From: Verrucomicrobiota bacterium
GTDB taxonomy: Bacteria > Verrucomicrobiota > Verrucomicrobiia > Limisphaerales > JANNEF01
Reading direction: 5' to 3'
DNA: 64,000 nt
Assembly (NCBI GenBank): GCA_031378375.1
Contig: JANNEF010000105.1
Span: 693 to 64,692 of the forward strand
Translations under genes and position numbers: made by a program
Part shown: positions 39,747 to 58,791 of the stretch, piece after piece
Layout of the letters: every line of letters starts with the position of its first letter
Position numbering within the stretch: position 1 is the stretch's first letter
The notes under the pieces: generated by a model
Seen by the model: the letters and a program-made list of their open reading frames with translations, nothing else
Database searches by the model: none
Told to the model about the DNA's origin: nothing

Positions 39747-40886
39747 ATGGCACCAGCGAAAGCGTCCAGCATGCACGGATGGAAAACCGGCAGGCCGATC
39801 CGCCTGGGTTTTCTGCCGCTGAATGATTGCGCCCCGCTGGTCATGGCTCACGAACTGGGCTTGTACGAACAATACGGACTCGAAGTCGAACTGCGACGCG
39901 AGACGAGCTGGGCCAACGTGCGCGACAAGATCATCTACGGCGAACTGGACGCCGCGCACGCACCCGGCGGACTGCTTTTCGCCACGAATCTCGGTTTGGG
40001 TTCCGACCAATGCGCCTGCGTCAGCGGGCTGGTGTTGAACCTGCAGGGCAATGCCATCACCATTTCGCGCGACCTTTGGGAGTGGGGCGTGCGCGACGCG
40101 GGGACATTGCGCGAAGCCATCCGCAGCACCTGGGGTCGGAAGACGCTCACGTTCGGAGTGGTCTTCCAATATTCCTCACACCATTTCCTTTTGCGGCAAT
40201 GGCTGCGCTCCGCCGGCATCAATCCCGACACCGATGTGCGCATCGTGGTTGTCCCGCCGGCGCAGATGTTCCCGAACTTGAAGCTCGGCTACCTCGACGG
40301 TTATTGCGTGGGCGAGCCGTGGACTTCAGTTGCCGTGCAGGCGCAAGCAGGCGTGTGCGTCGCCACCAGCGTGGAACTGGCGCCGCTGCACCCGGAGAAA
40401 GTTTTGATGACCAGCCTCGCCTTCGCCGAAGAACATGCCGACACGCACGAGCGGCTCATCGCCGCCTTGCTGGACGCCTGCGCTTTTTGCGACCAGACGG
40501 AAAACCGCCGGCACCTCAGCGAATGTCTCGCGCAACCGCGCTACGTCAACGCCCCGGCAGAGTGCCTGAAAGCCGCACTCGTCGGCCCGTTCGACCTCGG
40601 GTCATCGCGCATCCAGTCCCTGCTCGACCTCAGCATTTTTCACCGCCATCAAGCCAACGATCCGACCGACGAGAAAGCGTCGTGGATCATGGATGGGCTT
40701 TATGACCTTTTGCAAAGCGGTGCGCTCAAAGCGTCGCACACGCGGATTCCCATTCTGAAAAATGCCTTCCGGCGCGACCTCTTTCACCGGGCCACCCAAC
40801 TGGTCCGGCAACAAGCCACACTGATCAACTCTGAAACCAAACATGAAACCGATCCCATCCTGCCGCCCGATGCCCTCACCGCTTAA
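39747..40886 (+). CDS. Cytoplasmic NrtA/NMT1-like nitrate-binding protein (NasS-like sensor)
   Basis: 379 aa with no signal peptide. RLGFLPLNDCAPLVMAHELGLYEQYGLEVEL and GYLDGYCVGEPW parallel NrtA (next gene). Soluble versions of this fold act as NasS-type nitrate sensors. Confidence 0.7.
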   Translation: MAPAKASSMHGWKTGRPIRLGFLPLNDCAPLVMAHELGLYEQYGLEVELRRETSWANVRDKIIYGELDAAHAPGGLLFATNLGLGSDQCACVSGLVLNLQGNAITISRDLWEWGVRDAGTLREAIRSTWGRKTLTFGVVFQYSSHHFLLRQWLRSAGINPDTDVRIVVVPPAQMFPNLKLGYLDGYCVGEPWTSVAVQAQAGVCVATSVELAPLHPEKVLMTSLAFAEEHADTHERLIAALLDACAFCDQTENRRHLSECLAQPRYVNAPAECLKAALVGPFDLGSSRIQSLLDLSIFHRHQANDPTDEKASWIMDGLYDLLQSGALKASHTRIPILKNAFRRDLFHRATQLVRQQATLINSETKHETDPILPPDALTA

Positions 40887-42138: not shown

Positions 42139-42171
42139 ACGCGACTGAGACGTCAACCGTGACTCACCAAG

Positions 42172-42483: not shown

Positions 42484-43271
42484 ACATTTCCAAATTCAAA
42501 CTCGACTGGCTCATCCTGCCGCTCTGCGGCGCCATCGTCGTACTCGTCTTGTGGCACGTCGCCAGTTCCACGGTGGCGAAGGAACTCCCGTCACCAGTGA
42601 AGACCTGGACGGCCAGCAAGGACTACATCTTGAAGCCGTTTGAAAAACGCGGCGAGATGGACCAGGGCATCCTTCGCTTCACCTGGTATTCGCTCATCCT
42701 CGTCGCCAAGGGCTACGCGATCGCGCTGATCATCGGGACGCCGATTGGTTTTTTCCTGGGCCTGTCGAAGGTGTTCACCAAGACCTTCGATCCCATCATC
42801 CAGGTGTTGCGACCCGTGTCGCCGCTGGCGTGGCTGCCGCTGGGATTGGTGTTGTTCCTCGGCGCGGGCAAGCAGGCGTCGGAATTGGGGGCGCTGTTCA
42901 CCATCGCCATCTGCGCGATGTGGCCAACGGTGCTGAACACCGCCGTCGGTGTGCGCGCCATTCCACAGGATTACTTGAACGTGGCGAAAGTGCTGAAACT
43001 CTCGCGCACGAAGACGCTTTTCAAGGTACTCATCCCGGCGACGTTGCCGTACATGTTCACCGGATTCCGCCTGAGTCTGGGCATCGCGTGGCTCGTCATC
43101 GTCGCGGCGGAAATGCTCACGGGCCGGCCCGGCGTCGGCGGCTTCCTCTGGCAGGAATACAACGCGCTCATCTACGAGCACATCATCCTCTGCATCCTGA
43201 CGATTGGGATCGTCGGGTTCATTCTGGACCGGCTGATGAGCTTGGTGGAGAAACGATTCAAGACCGCATGA
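42480..43271 (+). CDS. nrtB: Nitrate ABC transporter permease NrtB
   Basis: 263 aa, NitT/TauT-type permease (PSPVKTWTA, LRPVSPLAWLPLGLVLF, KVLKLSRTKTLFKVLIPATLPY). Confidence 0.9.
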   Translation: MNISKFKLDWLILPLCGAIVVLVLWHVASSTVAKELPSPVKTWTASKDYILKPFEKRGEMDQGILRFTWYSLILVAKGYAIALIIGTPIGFFLGLSKVFTKTFDPIIQVLRPVSPLAWLPLGLVLFLGAGKQASELGALFTIAICAMWPTVLNTAVGVRAIPQDYLNVAKVLKLSRTKTLFKVLIPATLPYMFTGFRLSLGIAWLVIVAAEMLTGRPGVGGFLWQEYNALIYEHIILCILTIGIVGFILDRLMSLVEKRFKTA

Positions 43272-43301
43272 AAAAGGCGATCCTTTCACGCACCACGCAC
43301 C

Positions 43302-44219
43302 ATGTCCTTCCTTGAGTTAAAAAACGTCAGCAAAGGTTTCGGCCCGGCGGGCACCCGCACCGAAGTGCTGCGCGACATCAACCTCGGCATCGAGAAAGGC
43401 GAGTTCGTCGCCATCGTTGGCTATTCGGGCGCAGGCAAAACGACGCTCATTTCGATGATCGCCGGCTTGGTGAAGCCGGACGCCGGTTCCATCACGCTCA
43501 ACGATCTGGAAATCACCGCGCCGGGGCCGGATCGCGCCATCGTCTTCCAGAATTACTCGCTGCTGCCGTGGATGAATGTTTACGAGAATATTTTCCTCGC
43601 CGTGGACCAGGTGTTCCCCAACTGGGCGCCCGCCAAGAAACAGCAGCACACGGAAAAATACATTGAGATGGTCAACCTCACGCCGGCGCGCGAAAAGTTG
43701 CCACGCGAACTTTCCGGCGGCATGAGACAGCGGGTTTCCGTCGCGCGCGCGCTGGCGACGGACCCGCAAATCCTCCTGCTGGACGAACCATTGAGCGCGC
43801 TGGACGCGCTCACGCGCGCCACGCTGCAGGACGAAATCGAACGCATCTGGGAGCAGGACAAGAAAACCGTCTTCCTCATCACCAATGACGTGGACGAAGG
43901 CATTCTGCTGGCCGACCGCATCATCCCGTTGAGCGCGGGACCGGGTGCCACACTGGGGCCGTCCATCACGGTGGACATTCCGCGCCCGCGTGACCGCAAG
44001 GCCATCAACCATCATCCGCGCTTCCGGGAAATCCGCCGCGAGGTGATTGACTACCTGCTCGGCGTTGGCGGCAAAAAGCACGCAACCGTCACGAGAAAAT
44101 TGCACCTGCCCGACCTCGAACCGGAGGACTTGAACGTGCCGCGCAACTTCTTCTCGCCGCGCCGCGGCCCCATCCGCCGCACCGAAGTGAAGCAGGAGAC
44201 GGTGGAAATTGACGCATGA
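43302..44219 (+). CDS. Nitrate/NitT-TauT-family ABC transporter ATP-binding protein (NrtC/D-type, first copy)
   Basis: 305 aa with Walker [10 protein letters not shown], signature [15 protein letters not shown] and Walker B LLLDEP. Confidence 0.88.
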
Positions 44220-45121
44220 GCGACTACCTGATTCTTTCCGACCTGACGAAGATTTACCCGTCGCCCAAAGGCCCGGCGGTCGTCGTCAAGGATTTCAACT
44301 TGTCCATCAAGAAGGGCGAGTTCGTGTGTCTCATTGGCCACTCGGGTTGCGGCAAGTCCACCGTGCTTTCCATGGTCGCCGGGCTGAACGACATCACGGG
44401 CGGCGGCATCATCCTCGCCGGCAAGGAACTCGTCGGGCCGGGGCCGGATCGCGGCATCGTCTTTCAATCGCCCTGCCTGCTGCCCTGGCTGACGGCCTTT
44501 GAAAACGTGATGCTCGGCGTGGATCAGGTGTTTTACACCGCGAGCATGGAAGAGCGCCGGCAAATCGCTGAGTACTACCTGAGCGTCGTCGGGCTGGCGG
44601 AGGCGATGCACAAACGCCCGGCGGAACTTTCCCAAGGGATGCGCCAGCGCGTCGGCATCGCCCGCGCGTTCGCGCTCTCGCCCAAGATGCTGTTGCTCGA
44701 CGAGCCGTTCGGGATGCTCGATTCGCTCACCCGCTACGAGCTGCAACAAGTGCTCATCGAGCTTTGGCGCAAGGACAAGAAAACCGCGCTCATGGTCACA
44801 CACGACGTGGACGAGGCGCTCTTCCTCGCCGACCGGATTGTGATGATGACCAACGGCCCCGAAGCCGAGGTGGGCGACATTCTGGAAGTCAAATTCCCGC
44901 GCCCGCGCACCCGCAAGGAAGTCATGGAGCACCCCGATTACTACCGGTTGCGCGAGCACTTGATCACGTTCCTGGAAGAACATGCGCACAAGAAACAATC
45001 CGGCACAAAGACGACCAACGCCCCACCAGTGCCGCCAGCCAACCACCTGAACGTTCGCCGCCCGGCCAACTCGCCGAGTTCGCCGGCCCTGGCCCGGCAA
45101 TTGGCCGACTCACCGAAATAG
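44216..45121 (+). CDS. Nitrate ABC transporter ATP-binding protein (NrtD-type, second copy)
   Basis: 301 aa with Walker [25 protein letters not shown] and LLLDEP. The start overlaps the upstream stop (ATGA). Confidence 0.88.
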
Positions 45122-45199
45122 CTTTCCGTATTGATCCAAATCAAACCCACCCCCGCGCCCGCCAACCAGACTGATCGCCAACAGAAATAACACAACGAC

Positions 45200-46666
45200 A
45201 TGATGAAAACGACTCCGCGAAAACTGACCGCCAGTGCTGTGATGCTCGCCACTGTCTCGGCCGCCTATTCCAAGAAAAACTACCCCACCCCCGCGCCACC
45301 ACCCAGCCCGGGGATGCTCAATGAGTGGCTGCGCAAAAAGGATGTTTACAACGCCGCGTGGGATGTGGGCGCCCAGGTGCGTCTTCGTTACGAGGCCAAG
45401 GATAATTTTTTCTCCGGCGCAAACGACTTCAAGAAATTCACGCCGAACCCGGATAACTCCTACCGGTTGCAGCGCATCAAGCCGCGCGTCGGCTACACGG
45501 CCGAATGGTTCAGCGTCTTCGTCGAGGGCCGCGGCAGCTACAGCACCGGCGACGACCGCAATCCCAATCCCGAAGCCGACGGCCCGATGGATCTGCACCA
45601 AGGCTACTTCACCGTCGGCAATCACAAGGAGTTTCCCGTCTCGCTGAAAGCCGGGCGGCAGGAATTGAGCTACGGCGACGAGCGCATCATCGGCGCGTTC
45701 GACTGGAACAATCTGGGCCGCGTGTTCGACACTGCGAAGGTGCGCTGGCAGAACCCGTGGTTCGCCGCCGACTTTTTCACTGGCCGGCTGGTCCTGCCGG
45801 ACGACAACAACTTCAACATGCCGAACGACTACGACTGGTTCTCCGGCATATACGCTTCGACTAAAAAAATTCCCAAGCAAACGACCGAAGCCTATTTTCT
45901 CGCGCGCAACACGAGCCCTGGTTCCGCCAGGACGATCACCAGTTCCACGCCGACGGGTGGCGCTTCGCCGCGCGACATCTACACTTTCGGTGTGCGTATG
46001 AAATCCACGCCGGGCGACTGGGGTAACTGGGACTACATGGGCGAATTCATGGGCCAGTTCGGCCACTTCAACGATCCGGCGATCCCCACGGCTTCCGCGC
46101 GCAGTCTTGAGCACCAGGCTTACGCCATCTTTGTCGGCGGCGGTTATACCTGGACGCAACTCGCCTACGCGCCGCGCGTCGGGCTGGAATACAACTTCGG
46201 CTCCGGCGACAGCAACCCCACGGACGGTAAACACGAGACGTTTGAGAACTTGTTCCCAACGAACCACAAGTTTTACGGCTTCATGGATATCTTTTCCTTG
46301 CAGAACATCCACAACGTCCGCCTGACCAGCTCCATCAAACCGGTGCCACGCCTCACACTGACCTTCGACTACCACGCCTTCTGGCTGGCGAATACAGGGG
46401 ACAACTTTTACACGGTCGCAGGCGGGCGGCGTGGTGGCATCGGCATGACGCCGGGCACGGGCTACGGGATCAATCCAAGTTACGGCAGCTACGTCGGGTC
46501 GGAAATTGATTTGGTCGGCACGTTTGCGATCAAGCCCTACGCCAGCGCGCAACTCGGCTACGGACATTTCTTCGTCGGCGATTACGTCAAACAATCCCTC
46601 TCCGCCCCAACGGTCGGTTCGACCGACGCGAACTGGATTTACGCCCAACTGAACCTCAGTTTTTAG
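45200..46666 (+). CDS. Outer-membrane porin, alginate-export (AlgE-like) family
   Basis: 488 aa. It has a signal peptide, an alternating beta-strand pattern and a terminal aromatic residue (LNLSF). GRQELSYGDERIIGAFDWNN is typical of the Alginate_exp family, which is often found in nitrate loci. Confidence 0.7.
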   Translation: MMKTTPRKLTASAVMLATVSAAYSKKNYPTPAPPPSPGMLNEWLRKKDVYNAAWDVGAQVRLRYEAKDNFFSGANDFKKFTPNPDNSYRLQRIKPRVGYTAEWFSVFVEGRGSYSTGDDRNPNPEADGPMDLHQGYFTVGNHKEFPVSLKAGRQELSYGDERIIGAFDWNNLGRVFDTAKVRWQNPWFAADFFTGRLVLPDDNNFNMPNDYDWFSGIYASTKKIPKQTTEAYFLARNTSPGSARTITSSTPTGGASPRDIYTFGVRMKSTPGDWGNWDYMGEFMGQFGHFNDPAIPTASARSLEHQAYAIFVGGGYTWTQLAYAPRVGLEYNFGSGDSNPTDGKHETFENLFPTNHKFYGFMDIFSLQNIHNVRLTSSIKPVPRLTLTFDYHAFWLANTGDNFYTVAGGRRGGIGMTPGTGYGINPSYGSYVGSEIDLVGTFAIKPYASAQLGYGHFFVGDYVKQSLSAPTVGSTDANWIYAQLNLSF

Positions 46667-46686
46667 GAGCCTGCTTAGAAATGGGT

Positions 46687-46716
46687 AGTGGAGCTGGCGC
46701 CCACGCCAGCGCCACT
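46687..46716 (+). terminator. GC-rich hairpin downstream of the porin gene
   Basis: AGTGGAGCTGGCG / CCCA / CGCCAGCGCCACT: a 13-bp stem with one mismatch, 21 nt after the stop. There is no U-run, so it may be a repeat element rather than a terminator. Confidence 0.4.
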
Positions 46717-46992
46717 ATCCAACAGACTCCCAGTTCACTTCCCGCCAGCGTGCGCAAAAAGAGTCAACCGGCGAAGGTTGCGACTCGGGTTGTACCCGCA
46801 TCGAAGTGCGTCGAGCAGTGCCGGAACCTCTTGGAATGGGCCTTCTGACTGCGCCAGTTTCTCTCCCAAGGCCAATGGATTGGCGGCTTTGCAACGGTGC
46901 TGAATTCGTTTCACGCAATCGTTGGAAACAATTCATGCACCAGAATGGCGCCGGGGCCGCCGCTGGCATTGGGCCTGCAAGTGGCGGAGTAG

Positions 46993-48240
46993 ATGAATCA
47001 CGAACCATCGTTTTGGAAGGCCGGACACTTGCCCACGTTGATCGGCGCGTTCCTTTGCTTCTGCGTTTGTTCGATGTGCTGGCTGCTGCTCGGCGGGCTG
47101 GGCAATCACATCGGGGCGGACCTCGGCTTGACGCCGTTGCAAAAGGGATTGCTCGCCGCCGTTCCGTTGCTGGGCGGCGCGCTGTTGCGGCTGCCGTTCG
47201 GCTGGCTCACCGACGCCATCGGCGCGAAGCGGACCGGATTGCTCGTGCTCGCGGCGACCGCCGTGCCGGTGCTGATGGGCTGGCTGTGGGCGCAGTCGTT
47301 CGCGAGCCTGCTGGTCGTGGGCTTTCTCCTCGGCGTCGCGGGCGCGAGTTTCGTCGTTGCGCTGCCGATGGCCAGCCGCTGGTATCCACCGCAATTTCAG
47401 GGACTGGCCATGGGCCTGGCGGGACTCGGACTGACGGGCACATTGTTCGCGACATTTCTTGGACCGCGGCTGGCGGAACGGTTTGGCTGGCAGAATGTCT
47501 TCGGCCTCGCGCTGATTCCCCTGGCGGTCGTCGCAGTTTTGTTCCTGGTGTTTACCAAGGACGCGCCCTGCGTTGTGCGCCGCCAAAGCCTCGCGGACTT
47601 CGCGGGCATGTTGCGCGAGCGCGACATGATTTTGTTCAGCCTGTTCTACGGTGTGACGTTTGGCGGGTTCGTCGGCTTCGCGAGCTTTCTTTCCATCCTC
47701 CTGGGCGACCAATACGGCCTCACCAAAGTCCGCGCCGGCGAACTCGCCGCGCTTGGCGTGATGGCCGGCAGCCTGGTGCGTCCGCTCGGCGGATTGCTCG
47801 CGGACAAGTTCGGCGGCATCCGCATGCTCAACGTGCTGTTCGGCGTGGTCGCGCTGCTCGCGATGGGTGTGGCGCAATTACCCGCCCTGCCCATCACGGT
47901 CGGGCTGTTCGTGGTCGCGATGGCCTGCCTCGGCCTCGGCAATGGCTCGGTCTTTCAGCTCATGCCGCATCGTTACGGCACGCGCGTCGGTGTGGCCACG
48001 GGCATTCTCGGCGCGGCGGGGAGCTTCGGCGGATTTTTTCTGCCGACGCTGCTTGGCTGGCTCAAGCAAACCACCGGCACTTACAGCGGCGGCATGGCGG
48101 TGCTGGCGGCGCTGGCCGTCGTTGCGCTCATCGTGCTGGCGGTGGTGCAGACGGAATGGGTCGGCGTCTGGATCGGCAAACACGGCCGCGTCGAATCGCG
48201 GCCGGCGACCCCGCCAATCAGGGAAGCCAACATCGCCTGA
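46993..48240 (+). CDS. narK: MFS nitrate/nitrite transporter (NarK/NasA-type)
   Basis: 415 aa with 12 predicted TM segments. GADLGLTPLQKGLLAAVPLLGGALLRLPFGWLTD and GAAGSFGGFFLP resemble the NNP-family signatures. Confidence 0.85.
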   Translation: MNHEPSFWKAGHLPTLIGAFLCFCVCSMCWLLLGGLGNHIGADLGLTPLQKGLLAAVPLLGGALLRLPFGWLTDAIGAKRTGLLVLAATAVPVLMGWLWAQSFASLLVVGFLLGVAGASFVVALPMASRWYPPQFQGLAMGLAGLGLTGTLFATFLGPRLAERFGWQNVFGLALIPLAVVAVLFLVFTKDAPCVVRRQSLADFAGMLRERDMILFSLFYGVTFGGFVGFASFLSILLGDQYGLTKVRAGELAALGVMAGSLVRPLGGLLADKFGGIRMLNVLFGVVALLAMGVAQLPALPITVGLFVVAMACLGLGNGSVFQLMPHRYGTRVGVATGILGAAGSFGGFFLPTLLGWLKQTTGTYSGGMAVLAALAVVALIVLAVVQTEWVGVWIGKHGRVESRPATPPIREANIA

Positions 48241-48247
48241 TTCGCCG

Positions 48248-49960
48248 ATGCCCAGCCCGCCTTCAACCAGACAACCCTTGCGCGAATCCGACACGAACGA
48301 CGGGCGCACGCTGATTGACGACTTGCTCGCCGAGCAGCGTCAACTCACCGCCGTCGAACAATTCTCCCGCGCGCACGACGCCCACGAAGTCCACGGCCGC
48401 CGCTACCGCGATCTGCTTCCCGCCAATGCGCCCGCGCCCGGACAGCAATACGCCTTCGAGGTGGACCTCGACCAGTGCAGCGGCTGCAAGGCGTGCGTGA
48501 CCGCGTGCCATTCGCTCAACGGCCTCGACGACGACGAGACCTGGCGCAGCGTCGGCGCGTTGCACTCCGCCAATGTGCGCCAGCCGCTCAAACAGATCGT
48601 CACCACGGCCTGTCATCATTGCGTGGATCCCGGTTGCCTCACCGGCTGTCCCGTGCTCGCCTACGACAAAGACCCCGTCACGGGCATCGTTCGCCACCTG
48701 GATGACCAGTGCATCGGCTGCCAGTATTGCGTGATGAAATGTCCCTACGAGGTGCCGCAGTACTCGAAGACTCGCGGCATCGTGCGCAAGTGCGACATGT
48801 GCAGCTCGCGCCTCGCCGTCGGTGAAGCCCCCGCGTGCGTGCAAGCCTGCCCGAACGAGGCGATCCGCATCACGGTGGTGGATCAGGCGAAGGTGCGCGG
48901 GAAGTATCGCAGGCTAAAATCCGAAGGCCGAAATCCGAAATCCGAATCAAATCCGAAGGCCGATAACCAAAACTCGCCATTCGGATTTCGGAATTCTTTC
49001 GGGCTTCGGGCTTCAGATTTCGGATTTCACAACTCCTTCCTCCCCGACTCGCCGAATCCCGCCATCACGCTTCCGACGACCCGTTACGTTTCCAAGCGCG
49101 CCCTGCCCGGCGACCTCGAAGCCGCTGACGCCCATGAACTCCGCCGCGCGAAGCCGCATCCGCCGCTCACCCTCATGCTGGTGCTCACCCAACTCGGCGC
49201 GGGGCTGGCGCTGATGGACGCGCTCACGGGCGGCGCGGCGCGGATGCTGGCAGCCGTCGCCCTCGCGGCCAGCGCCCTCGGCGTCGTCGCGGGCACGCTG
49301 CACCTGGGCCAGCCGCTCAAGGCGTGGCGCAGTTTTCTCGGCTGGCGCAAATCATGGCTGAGTCGCGAGTTGATTGCCTTCGGCGCTTTCGTCGGCGTGC
49401 TCGGCTCGCATCTGGCCATTGGCCGTCCGCTCTCCGCCGGTCTCGCCGCGCTCACCGGACTCCTCGCGGTCGCGTGCTCGGCGATGGTTTACGCGGACAC
49501 GCGCCGGCCGTTCTGGAACGCGCCGATGACATTTGGAAAATTCCTCGGCACCACGCTGTTGCTCGGCGGGGCGGGGTCCCTGTTGCTGTCGGCGCTTGCC
49601 ACGAATCCACTCCTGCCGCGCCCTCTGGTGGTCGCCGTGATCGTGCTCGGCACCATCTTCAAGCTGGCCGTGGAGAATCGCATCTTCCGCTTTCTCGTGG
49701 ACGAACAAGACCCGCACCTCACCGCTCTCAACAAGACCGCCCTGCTGCTCAACGGCCTGTTCGGCCGGCTCTCGCGCGGTCGCGTGGCTTGCGCCCTCGC
49801 GGGTGGAGTGGTGCTTCCGGCGTTGATGCTTGTCACCGGCGCGGGCGTCGCCTTGCCCGCGTTGGCGCTGACGTTGTGCGTCGCGGGTGAACTCATCGAG
49901 CGCCATCTCTTTTTCGTCGCCGAGGTCGCGCCCAAAATGCCGGGAGGCCGGGGAGTATGA
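48248..49960 (+). CDS. Fusion of a 4x[4Fe-4S] ferredoxin (DmsB/NrfC-like) and a DmsC-like polytopic membrane anchor
   Basis: Track ORF trimmed to the ATG at 48248. It has four Cys clusters ([41 protein letters not shown]...CVQACP). About 8 hydrophobic helices follow, from residue ~300. The stop overlaps the nasA start (ATGA). Confidence 0.8.
48915..49030. repeat. AATCCGA-word palindromic element (in-frame copy inside the FeS/DmsC gene)
   Basis: The left arm is TAAAATCCGAAGGCCGAAATCCGAAATCCGAATCAAATCCGAAGGCCGA, followed by a 15-nt spacer. The right arm is ATTCGGATTTCGGAATTCTTTCGGGCTTCGGGCTTCAGATTTCGGATTTCAC. It is translated as [39 protein letters not shown]. Confidence 0.85.
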
Positions 49961-52362
49961 AGACCACGGGAGCCACAACCAGGCGCGCGGCTGTGGTCGC
50001 AGACCCAGCCGCAGCGCCCACGCAACGACAACGAGCTGCGGCTGATCCTACGGACCCAGCCGCGCTCCAATCGAACTCCCTTCTCCGTCAATGGAGCGGC
50101 CCGCTGTCCTCCGACCTCACGTTGCATCCCGGCGACTTTGGTCTCGGCAGAATCCCCGCCCGCCTTCGCCCCGACGCCACCACACGCTCCATCTGCGGCT
50201 TCTGCTCCACGGGCTGTTCGCTTGACGTTCACCTGCAATCCGGCGTGGCCGTGAACCTCACGCCCACGGTGGACTATCCGGTGAATCTGGGCATGGCGTG
50301 CCCGAAAGGCTGGGAGGCGCTCACCTGTCTGGCCGCGCCGGATCGCGCCACACAACCGCTTTTGCGCAATCCCGACACCGGCAAACTCGAACCCACCGAC
50401 TGGGACGAAGCGATGCAGGTCTTCACGCTGAAGTTCAAGGCGCTGATGGATCAGCACGGGCCGGAGAGTGTGGCGTTTCTCAGCACCGGCCAGATTTGCA
50501 CGGAGGAGATGGCGCTCCTCGGCGCGCTTTGGAAGTTCGGCATGGGCGCGTTGCACGGCGACTCGAACACGCGCCAGTGCATGGCCACCAGCCACGTTGC
50601 CTACAAGCAGAGCTTCGGCTTCGACGCGCCGCCCTACACCTACGCGGACTTCGAGGAGTCGGACACGCTCGTCTTCATCGGCTCGAATCTCTGCATCGCG
50701 CACCCGATTCTCTGGCAGCGCGTCCTGCGGAACAAAAAAAATCCCGCCCTCATCGTCATTGACCCGCGCAAGACGGAGACGGCGATGAACGCGACCCAGC
50801 ACGTCGCGCTGCGGCCCAAGTCCGACCTCACGCTGCTCTACGGCCTGGCGAACCTGCTGGTGCAGGGCGGCTGGATTGACCGCGCGTTCATCGAGCGCAG
50901 CACGACGGGATTCGCGGAGTTCGCGGAGTTCGTGCGGCAGTTCACACCCGACAAAGTTGCGGCGGAGACCGGCTTGACCGTGGGCGAATTGTCCCGCGTC
51001 GCCGAGACCATCGCGAAGGGCAAGGCCGTGAGTTTCTGGTGGACGATGGGCGTGAACCAGAGCCACGAGAGCACGCGCACCGCGCAGGCCGTCATCAATC
51101 TCGCGCTGATGACCGGCAACATCGGCCGTCCCGGCACCGGCGCGAACAGCATCACCGGCCAGTGCAACGCGATGGGCTCGCGCCTGTTCGCCAACGCCTC
51201 GGGACTGCTTGGCGGGCGCGACTTCCTCAACGCTGAACATCGCGCCGAGGTATCGCGCGCGTTGCACATCGCGCCGGAAAGCATTCCCGCGAAGAACTCG
51301 CTCGCCTACGACCAAATCATGCAGGGCATCGCCGAGGGCCGGATCAAGGGCCTATGGGTCATCGCCACGAACACGGCGCACTCGTGGATTGATTCCGCCC
51401 GCGCCTGTGGCGCACTCGACAAGCTGGAATTTCTCGTCGTGCAGGACATGTTCACGACCACCGACACGGCGAAACGCGCGCATCTGATTTTGCCCGCCGC
51501 CGGCTGGGGCGAGAAGGAGGGCACGTTCATAAACAGCGAGCGGCGCTTCGGTCACATCAAGAAAGTGTCACGCGCGCCCGGCCAGGCGTTGAGCGATTTT
51601 AACATCTTCCGCCTGGTAGCCGAATACTGGGGCTGCGCCGGGATGTTCAGCCAGTGGACTTCGCCGCAGGCCGTTTTCCAAATCCTGAAAAGACTTTCCG
51701 CCGGTCGCCCGTGCGACATCACGGGCATCGAAGACTACCGGCATCTGGATGCGAGCGGCGGGATTCAGTGGCCGCTGGCAAAAGAACGTGAGTCAGTAAT
51801 CAGTGAGCCAGTGACCAGTGAACGCGAGATGGCGACGGGTTCCGCTACTGATTCACTGAATACTGGCGCACTGATTACTGATCACTCTCCCCGCGAACGC
51901 CGCCTCTTCGCCGACGGCAAGTTCTTCACTCCCGATGGCCGCGCAAAATTCCTCTTTGACCCGCCACGTCCCGTCGCCGAGCCGGTGGACAGCGAGTATC
52001 CGTTCGTGCTGTTGACCGGACGCGGCACGAGCGCGCAATGGCACACAAACACGCGCACCGGCAAGTCCGCCGTCTTGCGCACGCTGTATCCGGCCAACCC
52101 CTACGTGGAGATCCATCCGAAAGACGCCGCGCGATTGCGAATCGAACCAAACACGACCGTCGCCGTCATCTCACGACGCGGGCGCGTTGAGTGCGCCGCG
52201 GTGGTCACACCCATCGTGCAGCCCGGACAGGTCTTCATCCCGATGCATTACGACCTGACGAACCAATTGACCCGCGCCGAGTTCGATCCGCACTCGCGCC
52301 AGCCCAGCTACAAACATTGCGCAGTGCGAATTGAACCGACGCGCAACGGTTCCAACAAATGA
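49957..52362 (+). CDS. nasA: Molybdopterin (bis-MGD) oxidoreductase, assimilatory nitrate reductase type (NasA/NarB-like)
   Basis: 801 aa with an N-terminal FeS motif ([10 protein letters not shown]...CPKG) and MGD-binding segments ([14 protein letters not shown]). The C-terminal barrel has [20 protein letters not shown] and the tail [10 protein letters not shown]. Confidence 0.85.
51788..51887. repeat. CAGT-word palindromic element (in-frame copy inside nasA)
   Basis: The left arm is GTGAGTCAGTAATCAGTGAGCCAGTGACCAGTGAAC, followed by a 23-nt spacer. The right arm is TACTGATTCACTGAATACTGGCGCACTGATTACTGATCACTC. It is translated as [33 protein letters not shown]. Confidence 0.85.
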
Positions 52363-54233
52363 GCGCCACGGAGTCCAACATCGTTGAGTTGCCCAAGTCG
52401 CCCGGACGCGAATTCACGCCCGAGCAAAAGGAATATCTCGCCGGCTTCATGGCAGGCATCGCGCAGCGCGGAATGATCCCCTTCGTCGGCGCGATGCCGG
52501 ATGGCCGCCTCACCGCTGACCCGGCGCACGGCGGCGACAATCTCGCCGCGCCGCGCGAGGAGACGGTGTTCGGCACGCCGCTCTCGGAGTTATGCAAACA
52601 GGAGCGATGGAAGTACGAGGAAAACCCGCTGGACGTTTGGGACAAGCTGCTCGCCTGCGCCGAGCAGGACAAACTACCCGACGAGGCGGACACTTTTCGC
52701 TTTCGGGCGCACGGCCTGTTCAACGTCGCCCCGGCGCAGAACGCCTTCATGCTGCGCTGCCGCATCCCCGCCGGCGAGTTGACGGCGGCGCAACTCAAGG
52801 GCCTCGCCGACATCGCGGAGGAATGGGGCGGCGGCTGGGCGGACATCACCACGCGGTCGAATATCCAGATTCGACAAATTGCGCCGCGCCACATCATCAA
52901 GGTGCTGACGCGGCTGCAGGAACTCGGACTCACCGCGCGCGGTTCCGGCGTGGACAACATTCGAAATGTCACCGCGTCGCCCACGGCGGGCTTCGACGCG
53001 GCGGAGTTGATTGACACGCGCCCGCTGGCGCACGCGCTGCACCACTACATCCTCAATCACCGCGACCTCTACGGGCTGCCGCGCAAGTTCAACGTCGCCT
53101 TCGACGGCGGCGGCGCGGTGAGCGCGGTGGCGGACACGAATGACATCGGGTTCGTGGCGGTACGAGTGGCGCAGGCTTCCAGCCTGAGTCCGGCGGGCTT
53201 GCCGCCCGCGAATCTGGGGCAGGGTGCCCCAAGCGGCAGGCTGGAAGCCTGCCCCACTATCGAGCCCGGCACCTACTTCCGCGTCGAACTCGCCGGCATC
53301 ACCGGGCACCGGCAGTTCGCGAAGGACGCGGGCATTCTCGTGAAGCCGGGCGAATGCCTGGCCGTCGCCGCCGCGATGATTCGCGTGTTCTGTGAGCACG
53401 GCGACCGTACCGACCGCAAGAAGGCGCGGCTGAAATACCTGATTGATAAGTGGGGCATCCCGAAGTTCCTCGAAGCGACGCAAGCGAAACTCGCCTTTGC
53501 GCTCCGTCATTTTCCGTTGGAGCAGTGCGAGCCGCGCCATCCGGCGGTGAAGCACGGGCACATCGGCGTGTTCAAGCAGGCGCAGCGCAACTTGAACTAC
53601 GTCGGCGTCGTCATCCCCGTGGGCCGGATGCAGGCGCGGCAAATGCGCCGGCTCGCCGACCTCGCGGCAAATTACGGCTCTGGCCACCTGCGCCTGACGC
53701 CGTGGCAGAATCTGCTATTGCCGAACATCCCCGACGGTTTCGTCGAGACGGTGAAGCGCAATCTCCTCCGCATCGGTTTCCACTATGAAGCCAGCACCAT
53801 CGCCGGCGGCCTCGTCGCCTGCACCGGCAACACCGGTTGTAAGTGGGCCGCGACGAACACCAAGGGCCAGGCGGTGGAGCTGGCGCGCTATCTGGAAAAG
53901 CGCGTGCAACTCGACCAGCCGATCAACATCCATCTCACCGGCTGCCCGAACTCCTGCGCGCAGCACTACATGGGCGACATCGGCCTGCAAGGGGCGCGCG
54001 TCACGTTGAGCGGCGAGTCGGTGGAGGCGTATCACGTCGTGCTTGGTGGCGGTTACGGCGCGGAGCAGGCGGTAGCAAAGGAAGTGTTCAAAGGCATCCC
54101 GTTCTCCGCGCTGCCGGAGCTGCTGGAGCGGGTGCTCATTGTTTACCAGGAGAAGCGGGCGGCGGGCGAGAGCTTCGCCGCGTTCACGCGCCGGCATGAA
54201 GTGAAACAACTGCAAGAGATGTTTTCTGAGTGA
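52359..54233 (+). CDS. nirA: Sirohaem/[4Fe-4S] nitrite (or sulfite) reductase hemoprotein, NirA-type
   Basis: 624 aa. It has duplicated NIR_SIR halves and the cluster/sirohaem Cys motif ([11 protein letters not shown]...[17 protein letters not shown]). The start overlaps the nasA stop (ATGA). Confidence 0.85.
53171..53252. repeat. Inverted-repeat element inside nirA (in frame)
   Basis: Perfect 16-bp inverted repeat GCAGGCTTCCAGCCTG (53171-86) / CAGGCTGGAAGCCTGC (53237-52). It encloses two small hairpins (GCGGG-CTTGCCG-CCCGC and GGGGCA-GGG-TGCCCC). It is translated as [28 protein letters not shown]. Confidence 0.8.
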
Positions 54234-56017
54234 TGGAAACCAACTTGATTCCCTACCTGCCCGACACGGCGCCGTTCACGCCGGAGCAACGAGCCTATTT
54301 GAACGGGCTGTTCGCCGGCCTGTTCGCCCACGCGCCGCGCGCCACCAACCCGGCGCCTGCCGCCAAGCCACTGCTACCGCTGACCATTCTGTTTGGCTCG
54401 CAGACCGGCAATGCGGAGGCGCTCGCCAAGCGCGTCGCCAAGGAAGCCGGCAAGCAGGGCTTCGCGCCGACGATCTTTGACGCGGCGCAATATCCGCGCG
54501 AGCAACTCAAGACCGAGAAGCATCTGCTGCTCATCACCAGCACCTACGGTGACGGCGAACCGCCGGACAACGCAAAGGACCTGTGGGAATTTCTCACCGC
54601 CACCACCGCACCCGCGCTGCCGGAGTTGAAGTTCTCCGTGCTGGCCCTGGGCGACACGAACTACGAAAAGTTCTGCGAGTGCGGGAAAAACTTCGACCGC
54701 CGCTTCCATGAGCTGGGCGCACACCGGGCGCATCCGCGCGTGGATTGCGACGTGGACTTTGAGGAGCCATTCGGGAACTGGCTGGCCGGCGCGTTGGGCG
54801 CGCTGGCAGGCGGTGGGGGAGTAATCAGTGAATCAGTAATCAGTAGGTCAGTGACCAGTGCGCCCGTCTCTGCCACTGATTCACTGGTTACTGGTTACTC
54901 GCGCGCCCACCCGTTCCCCGCCCCGCTCGTCGCCAACCGCCGGCTCAACGCTCCCGGCTCGGGCAAGGACACGCGGCATTTTGAAATCGCACTCGACGGC
55001 AGCGGCTTGACCTATGAAGTCGGCGACGCGCTGGGGGTGGTGCCGGCGAATTGCCCGGAACTCGCGGACGAGATGCTTCGCACGCTCGGCTGCACCGGCG
55101 GGGAAGCGGTGCCCGGCGCGAAGGGTGGCGAAGTCCCGCTGCGCGAGGCGCTGTTGCGGCATTACGACATCACGAAGATTGCCCAGCCGCTCTTGCAGGC
55201 AATGGCAGAGCGGAGCGGGGACGAGTTGCTCAAGCAACTCACCGCGCCCGGTGTGAACGGCGAGTTGACGAAATTTCTCTGGGGCCGCGAGATTGTTGAC
55301 CTGTTGCTGGCGCACCCGCGCGCGAAGTTCGCACCGATGGAATTTGTCGGCCTGCTCAAGAAACTTCAGCCGCGGCTCTACTCCATTTCCTCCAGCCCCA
55401 AGGCACATCCCGGCCAGGTGCATCTCACTGTCGGGGTCGTGCGCTACGAATCGCTGGGCCGGGCGCGCAAAGGCGTGTGCTCCACGTTCCTGGCGGAGCG
55501 CGCGGGCGGCGGCGCGGCGGCGCCGGTCTTCGTCCACACGAACAAAGGCTTTCGCCCGCCCGCCGATGGCAGCCGTCCGATGATCATGGTCGGGCCGGGC
55601 ACGGGCATCGCGCCGTTCCGCGCTTTTCTGGAAGAGCGTCGCGCCGTCGGCGCGACGGGAAAGAACTGGCTGTTCTTCGGCGACCAACGGTCGGAGATGG
55701 ATTTCCTCTACCGCGAAGAGCTGGAGGCGATGCATCGCGACGGCACGCTGGCGCGGCTGGACACGGCTTTCTCCCGCGATCAGGAAGAAAAGATTTACGT
55801 GCAACAGCGAATGCTCGAACACGCCACCGAACTGTTCACCTGGCTGGAGGCCGGCGCGCATTTCTACGTCTGCGGCGACGCCAACCGCATGGCGAAGGAC
55901 GTGGACCGGGCGCTGCACCAGATCATCGAGCAAGCCGGCGGACGCACGGCAGAGCCGGCGGCGGAGTACGTGAAGAAGATGCAGGCGGAGAAGCGGTATC
56001 AGCGGGATGTGTATTGA
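54230..56017 (+). CDS. Diflavin reductase, sulfite reductase flavoprotein CysJ-like (flavodoxin + FAD/NADPH domains)
   Basis: 595 aa with an FMN domain ([32 protein letters not shown]) and an FAD/NADPH domain ([42 protein letters not shown]). Start is GTG 54230 or ATG 54233; both overlap the nirA stop. Confidence 0.88.
54821..54900. repeat. CAGT-word palindromic element (in-frame copy inside the cysJ-like gene)
   Basis: The left arm is GTAATCAGTGAATCAGTAATCAGTAGGTCAGTGACCAGTG, followed by a 13-nt spacer. The right arm is CACTGATTCACTGGTTACTGGTTACTC. It is translated as [27 protein letters not shown]. Confidence 0.85.
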
Positions 56018-56063
56018 AGCGTGAAACGGAAAACAAGCGCGACGACAATCACGCTTTCACGTT

Positions 56064-56990
56064 TCACGTCTCCATGCCCGGCAAATCCCGCCGGTCCATC
56101 CGCATCCCCGCCGCCACGTTGCGGCACAGCCGGCAGAAGGTTTCCTCCACCAGACTCAGCCGGCGGCCCGCGAGCGAGGCGATCACCCACTGACGGCGCA
56201 ACGGTTTCGGGCCGAGCGGGCGCATCCGCAGCGTGCCGCGCGCGAGTTCCTTGTCGGCGGTCCACGGCGCGAGCACGGAGACGCCAAGGTTGAGCTTCAC
56301 CAGTTCCTTGATCGCCTCGATGCTGGCGATCTCCATCACGGTGCTGGGCACCAGATCGAGGCCGCGGAAGTATTCGTCCACCAGTTGCGCCGTCAGGCTG
56401 GCGCGCTGGTAAAGGATGAGCGGCTGCGTGCGCAAATCATCGCGCGCAATGATCTCGCCGGCGGCCCACGGATGCGACGGCGCACAGACGAAGAGCAGCT
56501 CATCCTTGCACACGGGACGGACCTCCAGATCCGGCAGTCGTTCGGGCGCGACCCCCAGCGCGAGATCGATCCGGTTCTGCTGAATCAACTCCACCATCTC
56601 CGGCATGTCGCCCGATTCGACCTGCAGGGAGAAATTCGCGGACGACTTCTTCAACTCGCGGATGACGGCCGGCAAAATGTACTGGCAGGCGGAAGCCGCC
56701 GCGCCGATGCGCAGGCGCGTCTGGCCCCATTTGCCGAGGCGCTTGAGCGATTCCTCGGCGGCGGCGAGCGCCTGCATGGGTTGTTGGATTTGAGCCAGGA
56801 GCTGTTCGCCCGCCTGGTTAAGCAACATTTTTTTGCCCGCGCGGTCGAACAAGCGACAGCCGAGCTGCGTCTCGAGCGTCTTCAACCCGTGGCTGATGGC
56901 CGACGGCGTGAGATGCAGTTGGGCGGACGCCGTCACGAGGCTGCCGTGGCGGGCGACGGCGGAAAACATTCTGAGCTGGCGCGTGTCCAC
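56064..56990 (-). CDS. LysR-family transcriptional regulator
   Basis: 308 aa. It has an N-terminal wHTH (MFSAVARHGSLVTASAQLHLTPSAISHGLKTLE) and a LysR substrate-binding domain. It is convergent with the nitrate operon. Confidence 0.9.
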   Translation of the reverse strand: MDTRQLRMFSAVARHGSLVTASAQLHLTPSAISHGLKTLETQLGCRLFDRAGKKMLLNQAGEQLLAQIQQPMQALAAAEESLKRLGKWGQTRLRIGAAASACQYILPAVIRELKKSSANFSLQVESGDMPEMVELIQQNRIDLALGVAPERLPDLEVRPVCKDELLFVCAPSHPWAAGEIIARDDLRTQPLILYQRASLTAQLVDEYFRGLDLVPSTVMEIASIEAIKELVKLNLGVSVLAPWTADKELARGTLRMRPLGPKPLRRQWVIASLAGRRLSLVEETFCRLCRNVAAGMRMDRRDLPGMET

Positions 56991-57315
56991 TTATCGCTCC
57001 AGCAAGCAGGAGACCCGCGCGCGGCGACCCGGTTTTTCGGCAAACAAAATCATGCAGCGGCGGCAGCTTAAGGAGGAGAAGCTCAAAGCTCAAGCGAAGG
57101 TCAAAACTTCAAACAAAGCGGGCGGGGTGTATCCGGGATCTCCTCGCCGTTGCTTCGCGGGCGGGGACGTTGGGAACCCGCCCCAACCCAGTTGCTGGAA
57201 AAGCCCCAAGCACATTGCAGGATCCCGGGACTGGTTCCGAGCCGGTGGGCCGCACCTTCAGGTGCTCCGCTGGAAGGCAGCGCACTCCGGGGTATCACGA
57301 CTACGCCGCCGACGG

Positions 57316-58791
57316 TCAGTGGATGTCGCGGCCGAACGGGGGAATCTCCTTGTGCCAGCCGGTGCTTTGCTCGTAGGCGTGTGCAACTTTCAGCAGCGTT
57401 GCTTCGCCAAAGGGTTTGCCCAGCACTTGCAGGCCAATCGGCAACTTTGGGCTTTGCGAGAAACCGCACGGCAGGCTCACGCCGCAGATGCCCGCCAGGT
57501 TGCACGAGATGGTGAAGATGTCCGAGAGATACATCCGCATCGGATCGTCGGACTTCTCGCCAACCTTGAACGCGGGCGTGGGCGTCGTCGGCGTCACTAT
57601 GGCATCCACCCGCTCGAACGCCCTGAGAAAATCCTGGCGGATGAGCGTGCGGACTTTTTGCGCGCGCAGGTAGTAGGCGTCGTAGTAACCGCTGCTCAGA
57701 ACGTAGGTGCCGAGGATGATGCGCCGCTTGACCTCCGCGCCGAAGCCCGCCCCGCGCGTCCGGCTGTATAGTTCCGTGGGGTCCGCGCCGTCCACCCGCG
57801 CGCCGTAGCGGATGCCGTCAAAGCGGGCGAGGTTCGCACTCGCCTCGGCGGTGGCGATGATGTAGTAGGTCGCCACCGCGTAATCGGTGTGCGGGAGGGA
57901 GATTTCCACAAGTTCCGCGCCGAGTTGCTCCAACTGCTTCACGGCCGCTTGCACAGCAGCGGTCACTTCCGGGTCGAGGCCGCCGATGAAATATTCCTTC
58001 GGCAGGCCGAGTTTCAGCCCTTTGATGTCGCCCGTGAGCGCGGCGGTGTAGTCGGGCACGGGCTCCGGCACGCTGGTCGAATCGCGTTCGTCGCGACCGC
58101 TGATGACGCCGAGCATCGTTGCCGCGTCACGCACGTCCTTGGTGAAGGGGCCGATCTGGTCGAGCGACGACGCGAAGGCCACGAGGCCGTAGCGAGAGAC
58201 GCGGCCGTAGGTGGGCTTCAAACCCACGCACCCGCACAACGCGGCCGGTTGGCGGATGGACCCGCCGGTGTCGGAGCCAAGCGTGGCGAACGCCTCGTCC
58301 GCCGCCACCGCCGCCGCCGAACCGCCGGAGGAACCGCCGGGGATGCGCGTGCTGTCCCAGGGATTGCGCGTGGTGACGAACGCCGAGTTCTCCGTCGAGC
58401 TGCCCATCGCAAACTCATCCATGTTCAGCCGGCCGAAGACAATCGCCCCGGCGGCCCTGAGCTTCTCAACCACGGTGGCGTCGTAGGGGGAAACGTATTT
58501 GCCGAGAATTTTCGACCCGCAGTTGAGCGGCTGGTTTTTGACGGCGATGACGTCCTTGAGCGCGACGGGCACTCCAAGCAGCGGCTTGGCAGAGGCCGCG
58601 CCGACGGCGATCTGTTTGTCCGCCGCGTCGGCCTGCGTCAGCGCGTCGGCAGCGTCAAGGCTGAGGAAGGCGTGGAGCTGGCCGTCCACGCGGGCGATCT
58701 GGTCGAGACAGGCCTGGGTGGCGTCGCGGGCGGAAACTTCGCGTTTGGCGAGCTTGACGCGGAGTTGCGAGAGGGTCAGTTGGTGCAGCAT
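57316..58791 (-). CDS. gatA: Glu-tRNA(Gln)/Asp-tRNA(Asn) amidotransferase subunit A
   Basis: Amidase signature [13 protein letters not shown] and [13 protein letters not shown]. The start is set to the ATG at 58791 ([11 protein letters not shown]). The track start at 58833 is a TTG overlapping gatC and cannot be excluded. Confidence 0.92.

Follow-up and report, generated by a model that had tools for sequence, protein, structure and literature searches.

Textbook bacterial nitrate assimilation takes its electrons from ferredoxin, from flavodoxin or from NAD(P)H. Among the NrfD-type molybdoenzymes listed in PMC8076601, only SoeABC, known from Allochromatium vinosum and Aquifex aeolicus, has a hypothesised placement of A and B on the N-side (cytoplasmic side) of the membrane; its anchor would be inverted and its quinone site would face the N-side. 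An inverted orientation is therefore not unprecedented, as a cytoplasm-facing molybdoenzyme with an NrfD-type anchor has already been proposed. In DmsC, the anchor of Escherichia coli DmsABC, the proposed quinone-site residues are Ser62, His65, Ser82 and Glu87 (PMC8076601). The H65R substitution in DmsC is reported to inactivate DmsABC fully (2026 paper, PMC13059093), while the title of Geijer and Weiner (2004) presents E87 as important for menaquinol binding. Here we describe a gene pair from a Verrucomicrobiota bacterium (assembly GCA_031378375.1) that encodes an iron-sulfur (FeS) protein fused to a DmsC-like anchor, followed by a NasA-like molybdenum (Mo) subunit. The pair lies in a 64,000-nt stretch of contig JANNEF010000105.1 (positions 693-64,692), which was analysed as a whole and is referred to below as the window; coordinates are those of the window. 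We propose, with a probability of about 0.6, that the two proteins form a membrane-bound, cytoplasm-facing, two-subunit quinol:nitrate oxidoreductase that would catalyse the first step of nitrate assimilation.

The gene pair and its predicted topology

The original prediction, made from the sequence and its open reading frames (ORFs), described the upstream partner of the Mo gene, coupled to it by an ATGA overlap (49957-49960), as a four-cluster ferredoxin fused to a DmsC-like anchor of about eight helices. This description holds. A single 570-aa ORF matches the Pfam domains Fer4_11 (residues 117-208, E 3.5e-20) and DmsC (PF04976; residues 339-556, E 6.8e-13), where DmsABC-type complex iron-sulfur molybdoenzymes (CISMs) have separate B and C polypeptides. 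Sixteen cysteines fall into four CxxCxxCxxxC-type groups (residues 77, 80, 83, 87; 122, 125, 130, 134; 155, 158, 161, 165; 182, 185, 197, 201), as in the four-cluster ferredoxin subunit of the CISMs, and all sixteen are invariant in 20 diverse relatives. Among solved structures, the FeS part is nearest to FdnH (1kqf_B, E 6.8e-23), to the perchlorate/ethylbenzene-type beta subunits, and to ArrB and PsrB, and a Foldseek search with the FeS part of the AlphaFold2 model likewise returns FdnH, ArrB and PsrB. NCBIfam has no fusion-specific model, the best match being TIGR02951 (dmsB) at 126 bits against a cut-off of 214, and no record in the plasmid collection searched covers 80% or more of the protein, the only matches there being to FdnH-like FeS proteins. 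A GTG at 47867 was rejected as the start of the fusion gene, as it overlaps narK and the N-termini of homologues align with the ATG at 48248.

Residues 17-60 of the fusion protein form a family-specific helical segment ahead of the FeS domain. The segment has no Pfam match, yet V36, F39, Y53 and P58 are conserved in at least 90% of the 20 diverse members, and the AlphaFold2 model places a helix at residues 22-44. It may contact the Mo subunit.

Hydropathy and the AlphaFold2 model (pTM 0.73) both place eight transmembrane (TM) helices in the C-terminal part of the protein, the model adding two loop helices. The membrane domain is modelled with high confidence (pLDDT >90) and aligns with E. coli DmsC across all eight helices, and Foldseek matches it to the NrfD-like subunit ActC of alternative complex III (6lod_C/6f0k_C, probability 1.0). 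Its most conserved stretch is the TM2-TM3 loop, HLGxPxxAxRxFLGWRxSWLSRE, in which H352, L353, G354, G365, S369, W370, S372, R373 and E374 are invariant in the 20 diverse members. H352, S369 and E374, also invariant in 61 closer members, align with H65, S82 and E87 of E. coli DmsC, so that the domain resembles the haem-free, eight-helix NrfD/DmsC-type anchor of the CISMs with its quinol-site histidine and glutamate. Because TM1 and TM2 form a hairpin, the TM2-TM3 loop and the N-terminal FeS domain are on one side of the membrane, and the quinol site is predicted to be kept on the FeS side, as in DmsABC and PsrABC, that side now being the cytoplasm. A haem-binding anchor was considered and rejected: no NarI-like domain is present, and the conserved histidines are the invariant H352 and the nearly invariant H304, both at cytoplasmic helix ends. 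We treat the anchor as probably haem-free, like DmsC.

The FeS domain had been proposed to be cytoplasmic on the grounds that the fusion lacks a signal peptide, and the wider family supports this. Lysine and arginine residues were counted in the loops of 188 aligned family members, with the stretch ahead of TM1, loops 2-3, 4-5 and 6-7 and the C-terminal end taken as the FeS side. FeS-side loops carry a mean of 17.4 such residues (minimum 10) against 2.0 (maximum 10) in the opposite loops, and the FeS side is the richer in all 188 members. In 187 of the 188, no hydrophobic or twin-arginine translocation (Tat) N-terminus precedes the FeS domain. By the positive-inside rule, the FeS domain is predicted to be cytoplasmic, along with both termini and the 2-3, 4-5 and 6-7 loops of the anchor. 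The Mo subunit would likewise be cytoplasmic, because it must dock on the FeS domain. The charge bias and the lack of signals agree, as a prediction, with a SoeABC-like arrangement of cytoplasmic A and FeS subunits on an inverted anchor, and not with the Tat export of A and B to the periplasm that characterises DmsABC, Psr, Ttr and Arr.

The Mo subunit contains Molybdop_Fe4S4 (residues 74-119), Molybdopterin and Molydop_binding domains, and so has the make-up of a CISM catalytic subunit, a molybdenum bis(pyranopterin guanine dinucleotide) (Mo-bisPGD) protein with an N-terminal FS0 cysteine motif. Its best match among solved structures is the monomeric NapA of Desulfovibrio desulfuricans (E 8e-104). 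The predicted Mo-ligand motif, NTRQCMATS, corresponds to NPRLCMASA in that protein (Cys140) and NARHCMASA in E. coli NapA, fits the R-x-C-M-A/S pattern of the Cys-ligated Nas/NarB site, and is identical in all 120 close homologues. The aligned formate dehydrogenase FdhA (9vap) instead reads 'RICHST', and the selenocysteine or cysteine followed by histidine found at the Mo site of FdhF and FdnG is absent.

A neighbour-joining tree (688 columns, 100 bootstraps) was built from the window protein, nine partnered homologues from about six phyla, and reference sequences. The partnered Mo subunits are monophyletic in 100/100 bootstraps, with 61-86% identity to the window protein. Identity falls to 33-36% for the NasA proteins of Leisingera, Ralstonia and Halomonas, the Nas-diflavin fusion of Acetobacter and the NapA of Salmonella, and to 30% for the FdhF of Peribacillus; the window protein groups with the nitrate reductases and not with FdhF. 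The earlier assignment of the catalytic subunit as NasA/NarB-like is upheld by both motif and tree. The sister lineage (100/100 bootstraps), and the closest sampled relative outside the clade, is a Mo oxidoreductase from Cetobacterium with 44% identity. On plasmid p1 of Cetobacterium somerae (our locus L082, 3989-7747), its gene stands beside those for a 135-aa 4Fe-4S dicluster protein, an FAD-dependent oxidoreductase and a TDT-family transporter, a set that looks like a soluble three-component version of the enzyme.

The Mo subunit scores under every curated NCBIfam cut-off, those of NasA and NasC included. The haloarchaeal NasA model aligns over the full length with 442 bits (cut-off 1000), the NasC model gives 402 (1100), the NapA models give 309-329 (cut-offs >900; 329/904), and dmsA_ynfE gives 113 bits. 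No NarG-family model is among the 25 best matches, and narH reaches 37 bits against a cut-off of 524; together with the DmsC-type anchor, this sets the pair apart from NarG, NarH and the di-haem b NarI. Nor does it have the Tat signal and NapB, NapD or NapGH partners of NapA systems, no nap genes being present at the locus.

The highest NCBIfam score of all is that of Fdh-alpha, at 474 bits, though this is below its cut-off of 666 and covers residues 79-610 only. JGI labels point the same way, Mo homologues often being called 'anaerobic selenocysteine-containing dehydrogenase' and fusion homologues 'formate dehydrogenase iron-sulfur subunit'. These are the grounds for supposing that the Mo subunit is not a nitrate reductase but, for example, a formate dehydrogenase or a reductase of another oxyanion, with a coincidental neighbourhood. 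We regard this as highly improbable, given the Cys-Met-Ala active site shared with Nap and Nas, the full-length alignment to haloarchaeal NasA, and the linkage to nitrate transport and nitrite reduction at most related loci, across phyla. Among annotated plasmid-borne genes, moreover, the assimilatory nitrate reductases (33-35% identity) are better matches than FdhF and NapA. Formate dehydrogenase identity in particular was rejected in view of the Cys-Met in place of Cys/Sec-His and the nitrate-assimilation context. The Cys-Met motif, the best annotated relatives and NapA as the best structural match all indicate that the Mo subunit is an enzyme of the nitrate-reductase type and not a formate dehydrogenase.

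An N-terminal TRR dipeptide in the Mo subunit had been judged not to form a convincing Tat signal, and comparison with homologues bears this out. The first 37 or so residues differ among homologues in both length and sequence, the nearest homologues have other residues in place of the RR (HRSAAV, KRSAV), and many homologues begin only at the conserved 'NSLLRQW' segment. Tat export was rejected, as the RR is not conserved, no hydrophobic h-region follows and the N-terminus is missing in many homologues. The lack of a signal peptide and the cytoplasmic location are those of Nas/NarB enzymes. Beyond this variable stretch, an extension at residues 38-78, which precedes the FS0 cysteines, is conserved in 120 homologues and absent from the NasA, NapA and FdhF references; tblastn alignments start at query residues 31-43 for partnered homologues and at 61-77 for all references. 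The extension is a candidate docking element for the FeS domain. Since the partnered Mo subunits form a distinct clade with an extension of their own, a dedicated docking partner fits well, and we infer that the N-terminal segments of both proteins contribute to the subunit interface.

Gene pairing, electron supply and role

Searches of metagenome proteins returned at least 8000 candidates for the fusion protein and at least 8000 for the Mo subunit. When representatives at 50% identity were searched exhaustively, 734 clusters matched the fusion protein at E <= 1e-30, of which the 150 listed are all of similar length (438-708 aa), and a one-genome-per-species scan found at least 584 genomes with a relative. 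Neighbourhoods were compared at the best 80 loci of these genomes, which belong to Verrucomicrobiota, Planctomycetota, Myxococcota (several complete Sorangium genomes), Fibrobacterota, Acidobacteriota and one Kapaibacterium metagenome-assembled genome. Pairing was testable at the 62 loci with at least 2.6 kb downstream of the fusion gene, and at all 62, spread over at least five phyla, the Mo gene follows on the same strand. The co-occurrence of the fusion gene with a nasA-like gene, suggested as a survey in the original prediction, is strict, and the pairing is far beyond chance.

The placement of the Mo gene in an assimilation locus with nirA and nrt genes is confirmed by Pfam and NCBIfam matches across the gene run of the window. 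Most related loci share this context, and about 14 short or otherwise unannotated ones gave none. Wherever a nitrogen-related gene is identifiable beside the pair it is assimilatory, encoding a nitrate ABC importer, a NasS-like sensor, NirA or NirBD. Clustering with nitrate uptake and an ammonium-forming nitrite reductase, as for Nas/NarB enzymes, thus holds in the window and at most related loci. The nitrite reductase itself varies: verrucomicrobial and fibrobacterial loci encode NirA together with a CysJ-like protein, whereas planctomycete and myxobacterial loci encode a 986-aa NirB-NirD fusion (Pyr_redox_2, BFD, NIR_SIR, Rieske_2) and a NarK-type major facilitator superfamily (MFS) protein. 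The pair acts like an independent module that is combined with one nitrite-reductase module or another.

In the mechanism we propose, quinol, probably menaquinol, would be oxidised on the cytoplasmic face at the DmsC-type TM2-TM3 site (H352, S369, E374). Electrons would then pass through the four [4Fe-4S] clusters of the fused DmsB-like domain to FS0 (Cys 80/83/87/115) and on to the Cys208-ligated Mo-bisPGD of the NasA-like subunit, which would reduce nitrate brought in by NrtABCD and NarK. The nitrite formed would be passed to NirA, itself probably fed by its own CysJ-like NADPH reductase. The nitrate reductase would in this way tap the respiratory quinol pool instead of NAD(P)H or ferredoxin. 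With the predicted quinol and nitrate sites both cytoplasmic and no haems present, the core reaction should be electroneutral and generate no proton gradient, unlike the NarGHI redox loop. The NarGHI-like topology claimed in the original prediction is therefore retained in part: the cytoplasmic active site stands, but the di-haem NarI is lacking, the quinol site is predicted to be cytoplasmic and no redox loop is expected. We infer quinol as the donor, as well as the docking of the subunits and the direction and stoichiometry of the reaction.

Several points weigh against this proposal. The assignment of the donor is drawn from homology only, and the fourth proposed DmsC quinone-site residue, S62, is a glycine in the fusion protein. 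The FeS domain is modelled with low confidence (pLDDT ~45-78). The charge analysis has a weak control, as E. coli DmsC, whose DmsAB partners are periplasmic, scores 3 versus 3 lysines and arginines over the same columns; when DmsC is read by hand, the DmsB side has about 3-5 and the cytoplasmic side 8, a trend opposite to that of the fusion family but still a weak control. The operon encodes a CysJ-like NADPH diflavin reductase, and diflavin modules are elsewhere fused to nitrate reductase, as in the 'bifunctional nitrate reductase/sulfite reductase flavoprotein' of Acetobacter. NirBD-type proteins can pass NADH electrons to NasC, as in the Paracoccus NasBGC system. Finally, three planctomycete loci (L059, L062 and L079) carry a gene for a 267-aa FNR-like protein (FAD_binding_6 and NAD_binding_1) directly 5' of the fusion gene. 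It follows the NirBD fusion or a NirA-like gene, occupies 9149-9952 in L062, and ends 7 nt before the fusion gene. Electrons might enter the FeS domain through this protein, either in place of the proposed route or alongside it.

The last of these points lead to a different reading, in which the enzyme depends on NAD(P)H: a flavoprotein (CysJ-like, FNR-like or NirBD) would dock on the four-cluster domain, and the DmsC-like domain would be a mere tether, for instance beside NarK or Nrt. The translational coupling of the CysJ-like gene to the pair, the position of the FNR-like gene, the natural Nas-diflavin fusions and the FAD-dependent oxidoreductase and small 4Fe-4S protein beside the sister Cetobacterium enzyme all favour it. 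We nevertheless consider it unlikely. The membrane domain is the most constrained part of the fusion protein, with H352, S369 and E374 invariant, which is hard to square with a passive tether, and a four-cluster wire with eight helices would make a costly one. Most NirA loci also have the CysJ-like gene and none of the 26 NirBD loci does, so the client of its product appears to be the nitrite reductase. Further, of the 38 loci flanked on each side by at least 8 kb, 17 have neither a CysJ-like nor an FNR-like gene, which suggests that the pair supplies its own entry point for electrons. A soluble donor, either ferredoxin/flavodoxin or an NAD(P)H flavoprotein, is typical of Nas/NarB enzymes. Here the constant partner is the membrane FeS-DmsC protein, and the operon does have a CysJ-like gene, one that co-varies with NirA.

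A further alternative accepts quinol as the donor but assigns the enzyme a mainly dissimilatory or redox-balancing role, as a sink for the quinol pool that was co-opted into assimilation clusters and is perhaps electrogenic, with protons moving to the periplasm through an inverted NrfD-like channel. Electron transfer from quinol to nitrate is strongly exergonic by established redox potentials, which would suit such a sink. All characterised DmsC/NrfD-anchored molybdoenzymes are respiratory (PMC8076601), and the title of the same paper presents NrfD-like subunits as proposed ion translocators. This role is nevertheless improbable, more so than flavoprotein supply. The neighbourhoods are assimilatory wherever a nitrogen-related gene was identified (the ~14 loci without context aside), no denitrification or NrfA genes were found beside the pair among the genes searched for, and with both sites predicted in the cytoplasm no redox loop would be possible. 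A redox-balancing role does not fully exclude assimilation through a quinol:nitrate oxidoreductase.

If the preferred quinol-fed reading is taken further, the pair would define a fourth, quinol-dependent class of assimilatory nitrate reductase beside the ferredoxin-, NADH- and diflavin-dependent ones. It would be an inverted, BC-fused enzyme of the DmsABC type, standard in Verrucomicrobiota and Planctomycetota and common in Myxococcota, Fibrobacterota and Acidobacteriota. We rate the chances of this broader claim as evenly balanced. In its strongest version, the protons of quinol may pass into the periplasm through an inverted NrfD-like channel, and nitrate assimilation would then itself conserve energy. 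A quinol-fed enzyme would wire assimilation in several abundant soil and freshwater phyla to the respiratory chain, tie nitrate use to how reduced the quinone pool is and alter what it costs in reducing power. After SoeABC, it would add a second N-side-facing NrfD/DmsC module, one of independent evolutionary origin. The parts are currently labelled 'nasA', 'formate dehydrogenase iron-sulfur subunit' and 'DMSO reductase anchor', and metagenomic nitrogen-cycle inventories consequently either miscount the module or miss its membrane partner. The natural B-C fusion would be handy for structural work on haem-free anchors that couple quinol chemistry to FeS wires, and culturable hosts exist in Sorangium cellulosum, Gimesia and Opitutaceae.

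The wider gene cluster

The pair lies in a run of plus-strand genes spanning 39747-56017 (Table 1). The narK gene ends 7 nt before the fusion gene, while the fusion and Mo genes, the Mo gene and nirA, and nirA and the CysJ-like gene each overlap by 4 nt. Given these junctions, the last five plus-strand genes, from narK to the CysJ-like gene, look like one translationally coupled unit. The CysJ-like gene, directly 3' of nirA, did not feature in the original prediction; its product is most likely the reductase serving NirA. The N-termini of NirA (52359-52480) and the CysJ-like protein (54230-54330) have a similar motif, 'FTPEQ+xYLxG', through which this NirA-family/PRK06214-type pair may interact or oligomerise.

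Table 1. Positions of the genes, protein domains and insertions discussed in the text.
Feature	Position	Strand	Basis or remark
NasS-like cytoplasmic nitrate/nitrite-binding protein, no signal peptide	39747..40886	+	Pfam NMT1_2, E 1e-75; first gene of cluster
nrtA, with Tat-like RRDFLR signal	40843-42138	+	Pfam NMT1_2
Small conserved 103-aa ORF between nrtA and nrtB	42172-42483	+	
nrtB, nrtC, nrtD (with nrtA, nitrate ABC importer)	42480-45121	+	Translations; flank the pair in related loci too
Alginate_exp-family outer-membrane porin	45200..46666	+	Pfam PF13372, E 6.5e-66
NarK-family MFS nitrate/nitrite transporter	46993..48240	+	Pfam MFS_1; TIGR00886 244 bits, below cut-off 311.7
Fusion protein, 570 aa, FeS domain and DmsC-like anchor	48248..49960	+	Pfam, homologues, AlphaFold2 model
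Fusion, family-specific N-terminal helical segment, residues 17-60, 'TLIDxLLxEQxxLTAVExFSRxH...YxDLIP'	48296..48427	+	Conserved in 20 diverse members
Fusion, DmsB/FdnH-like domain, residues 67-215, four [4Fe-4S]	48446..48892	+	16 Cys; PDB matches
Fusion, in-frame palindromic insertion in the FeS-to-membrane linker	48908-49039	+	Inverted-repeat arms, hairpin -47 kcal/mol
Fusion, DmsC/NrfD-like eight-helix domain, residues 301-557	49148..49918	+	Pfam DmsC, DmsC alignment, pLDDT >90, Foldseek
Fusion, TM2-TM3 loop, predicted quinol site on FeS-domain side	49301..49369	+	Invariant residues, DmsC alignment
Mo-bisPGD catalytic subunit, 801 aa, NasA-like	49957..52362	+	Pfam, motif, tree
Mo subunit, clade-specific N-terminal extension, residues 38-78, before FS0 Cys	50068..50190	+	Conserved in 120 homologues
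Mo subunit, FS0 [4Fe-4S] domain, Cys 80, 83, 87, 115	50176..50313	+	Pfam Molybdop_Fe4S4, Cys positions
Mo subunit, Cys208 codon, predicted Mo ligand	50578..50580	+	Aligns with D. desulfuricans NapA Cys140
Mo subunit, in-frame palindromic insertion	51781-51903	+	
NirA-family sirohaem/[4Fe-4S] nitrite reductase, 624 aa	52359..54233	+	NF007126 849 bits, above cut-off 523; Pfam NIR_SIR, NIR_SIR_ferr
NirA, in-frame palindromic insertion	53163-53270	+	
CysJ-like NADPH diflavin reductase (flavodoxin, FAD and NAD domains)	54230..56017	+	Pfam Flavodoxin_1, FAD_binding_1, NAD_binding_1; NF004859 496 bits, above cut-off 432
CysJ-like gene, in-frame palindromic insertion	54809-54901	+	
Divergent LysR-family regulator flanking the operon	56064..56990	-	Pfam HTH_1, LysR_substrate

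Upstream of the coupled unit, the NasS-like gene overlaps the start of nrtA by 44 nt. No gene for an ANTAR/NasT partner is evident beside it, the gene upstream resembling ispD. The 103-aa ORF between nrtA and nrtB has no match in Pfam or NCBIfam, and a homologue (53-64% identity) occupies the same position in the related verrucomicrobial loci L013, L023 and L050. The Alginate_exp porin gene is syntenic near nitrate genes in L004, L006-L008, L013, L018, L050, L063 and other verrucomicrobial loci, and may encode a dedicated nitrate/nitrite porin. An Rfam scan of the whole window gave zero matches, and a promoter and terminator scan of 45000-57500 found nothing exceeding shuffled expectation.

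Four consecutive genes, from the fusion gene to the CysJ-like gene, each carry an imperfect-palindrome insertion, with predicted hairpins of -41 to -70 kcal/mol. The insertions encode low-complexity surface peptides (e.g. '..GRLEACPT..') and resemble Rickettsia palindromic elements, which enter ORFs in-frame. Those in the Mo and CysJ-like genes belong to one repeat family ('CAGTGATTCAGTAATCAGT'), further copies of which lie at 11866-11897 and 26664-26774. The insertion site in the Mo gene is a hotspot, with unrelated inserts of 0 to ~60 residues in homologues. The insertion in the fusion linker also encodes a low-complexity peptide, coincides with gaps in most homologues and is not part of the proposed mechanism.

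Comparison with known systems

The original prediction knew of no characterised example of such an enzyme, and our literature search, which covered only a minority of subscription-journal papers, likewise found none linking a DmsC/NrfD anchor to an assimilatory nitrate reductase, an absence that is not proof. By its parts, the pair most resembles E. coli DmsABC, with which it shares a Mo-bisPGD subunit with FS0, a 16-Cys four-cluster subunit and a haem-free eight-helix anchor that keeps the equivalents of H65, S82 and E87. Unlike in DmsABC, the B and C parts are fused, there is no Tat signal, the orientation is predicted to be inverted, the catalytic subunit is NasA/NapA-like and the genetic context is assimilatory.

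Soluble Nas/NarB enzymes, namely NarB (ferredoxin/flavodoxin), NasA/NasC (NADH via NasC/NasB/NasG) and the NasN-type diflavin fusions, share with the Mo subunit a cytoplasmic, Cys-ligated Mo-bisPGD and FS0. Their genes are likewise clustered with those for nitrate transporters and nitrite reductase, and they include its best annotated relatives, at 33-36% identity. The window protein differs in forming a separate clade with an N-terminal extension and scores below the NasA/NasC cut-offs, and it is paired with a membrane FeS-DmsC protein in place of a ferredoxin, Rieske protein or flavoprotein, a type of partner not described for the curated NasA and NasC families. The sister enzyme of C. somerae is similarly cytoplasmic with an adjacent FeS electron-transfer partner, but its partners are the soluble 135-aa di-cluster ferredoxin and the FAD-dependent oxidoreductase, with no membrane quinol module. 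It also lacks the N-terminal extension, its alignment starting at query residue 77. A pyridine-nucleotide donor seems probable for this enzyme, whose gene set presumably resembles the NarABC type of Clostridium perfringens.

NarGHI is membrane-bound too, with a cytoplasmic nitrate site, a four-cluster wire and quinol as donor, the last being conjectural for the pair described here. It differs in its NarI di-haem b and in its quinol site, which is periplasmic in NarGHI and predicted to be cytoplasmic here. The Mo ligand in NarG is an aspartate, while a cysteine is predicted in the present enzyme.

SoeABC shares the N-side topology predicted here, though its orientation is itself only hypothesised. 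By description, it consists of three separate subunits and couples sulfite oxidation to quinone reduction, the opposite direction of electron flow, with a different type of Mo subunit and no link to nitrogen assimilation. Both the active site, which is of the nitrate type, and the nitrogen-related surroundings speak against a SoeA-type protein. By its parts, then, the enzyme is a CISM of the DmsABC type that departs from that class in Tat export and in the separation of B and C, while its probable function and its genetic context make it an assimilatory nitrate reductase. The pair is widespread and unrecognised in current annotation, and its closest analogue is SoeABC.

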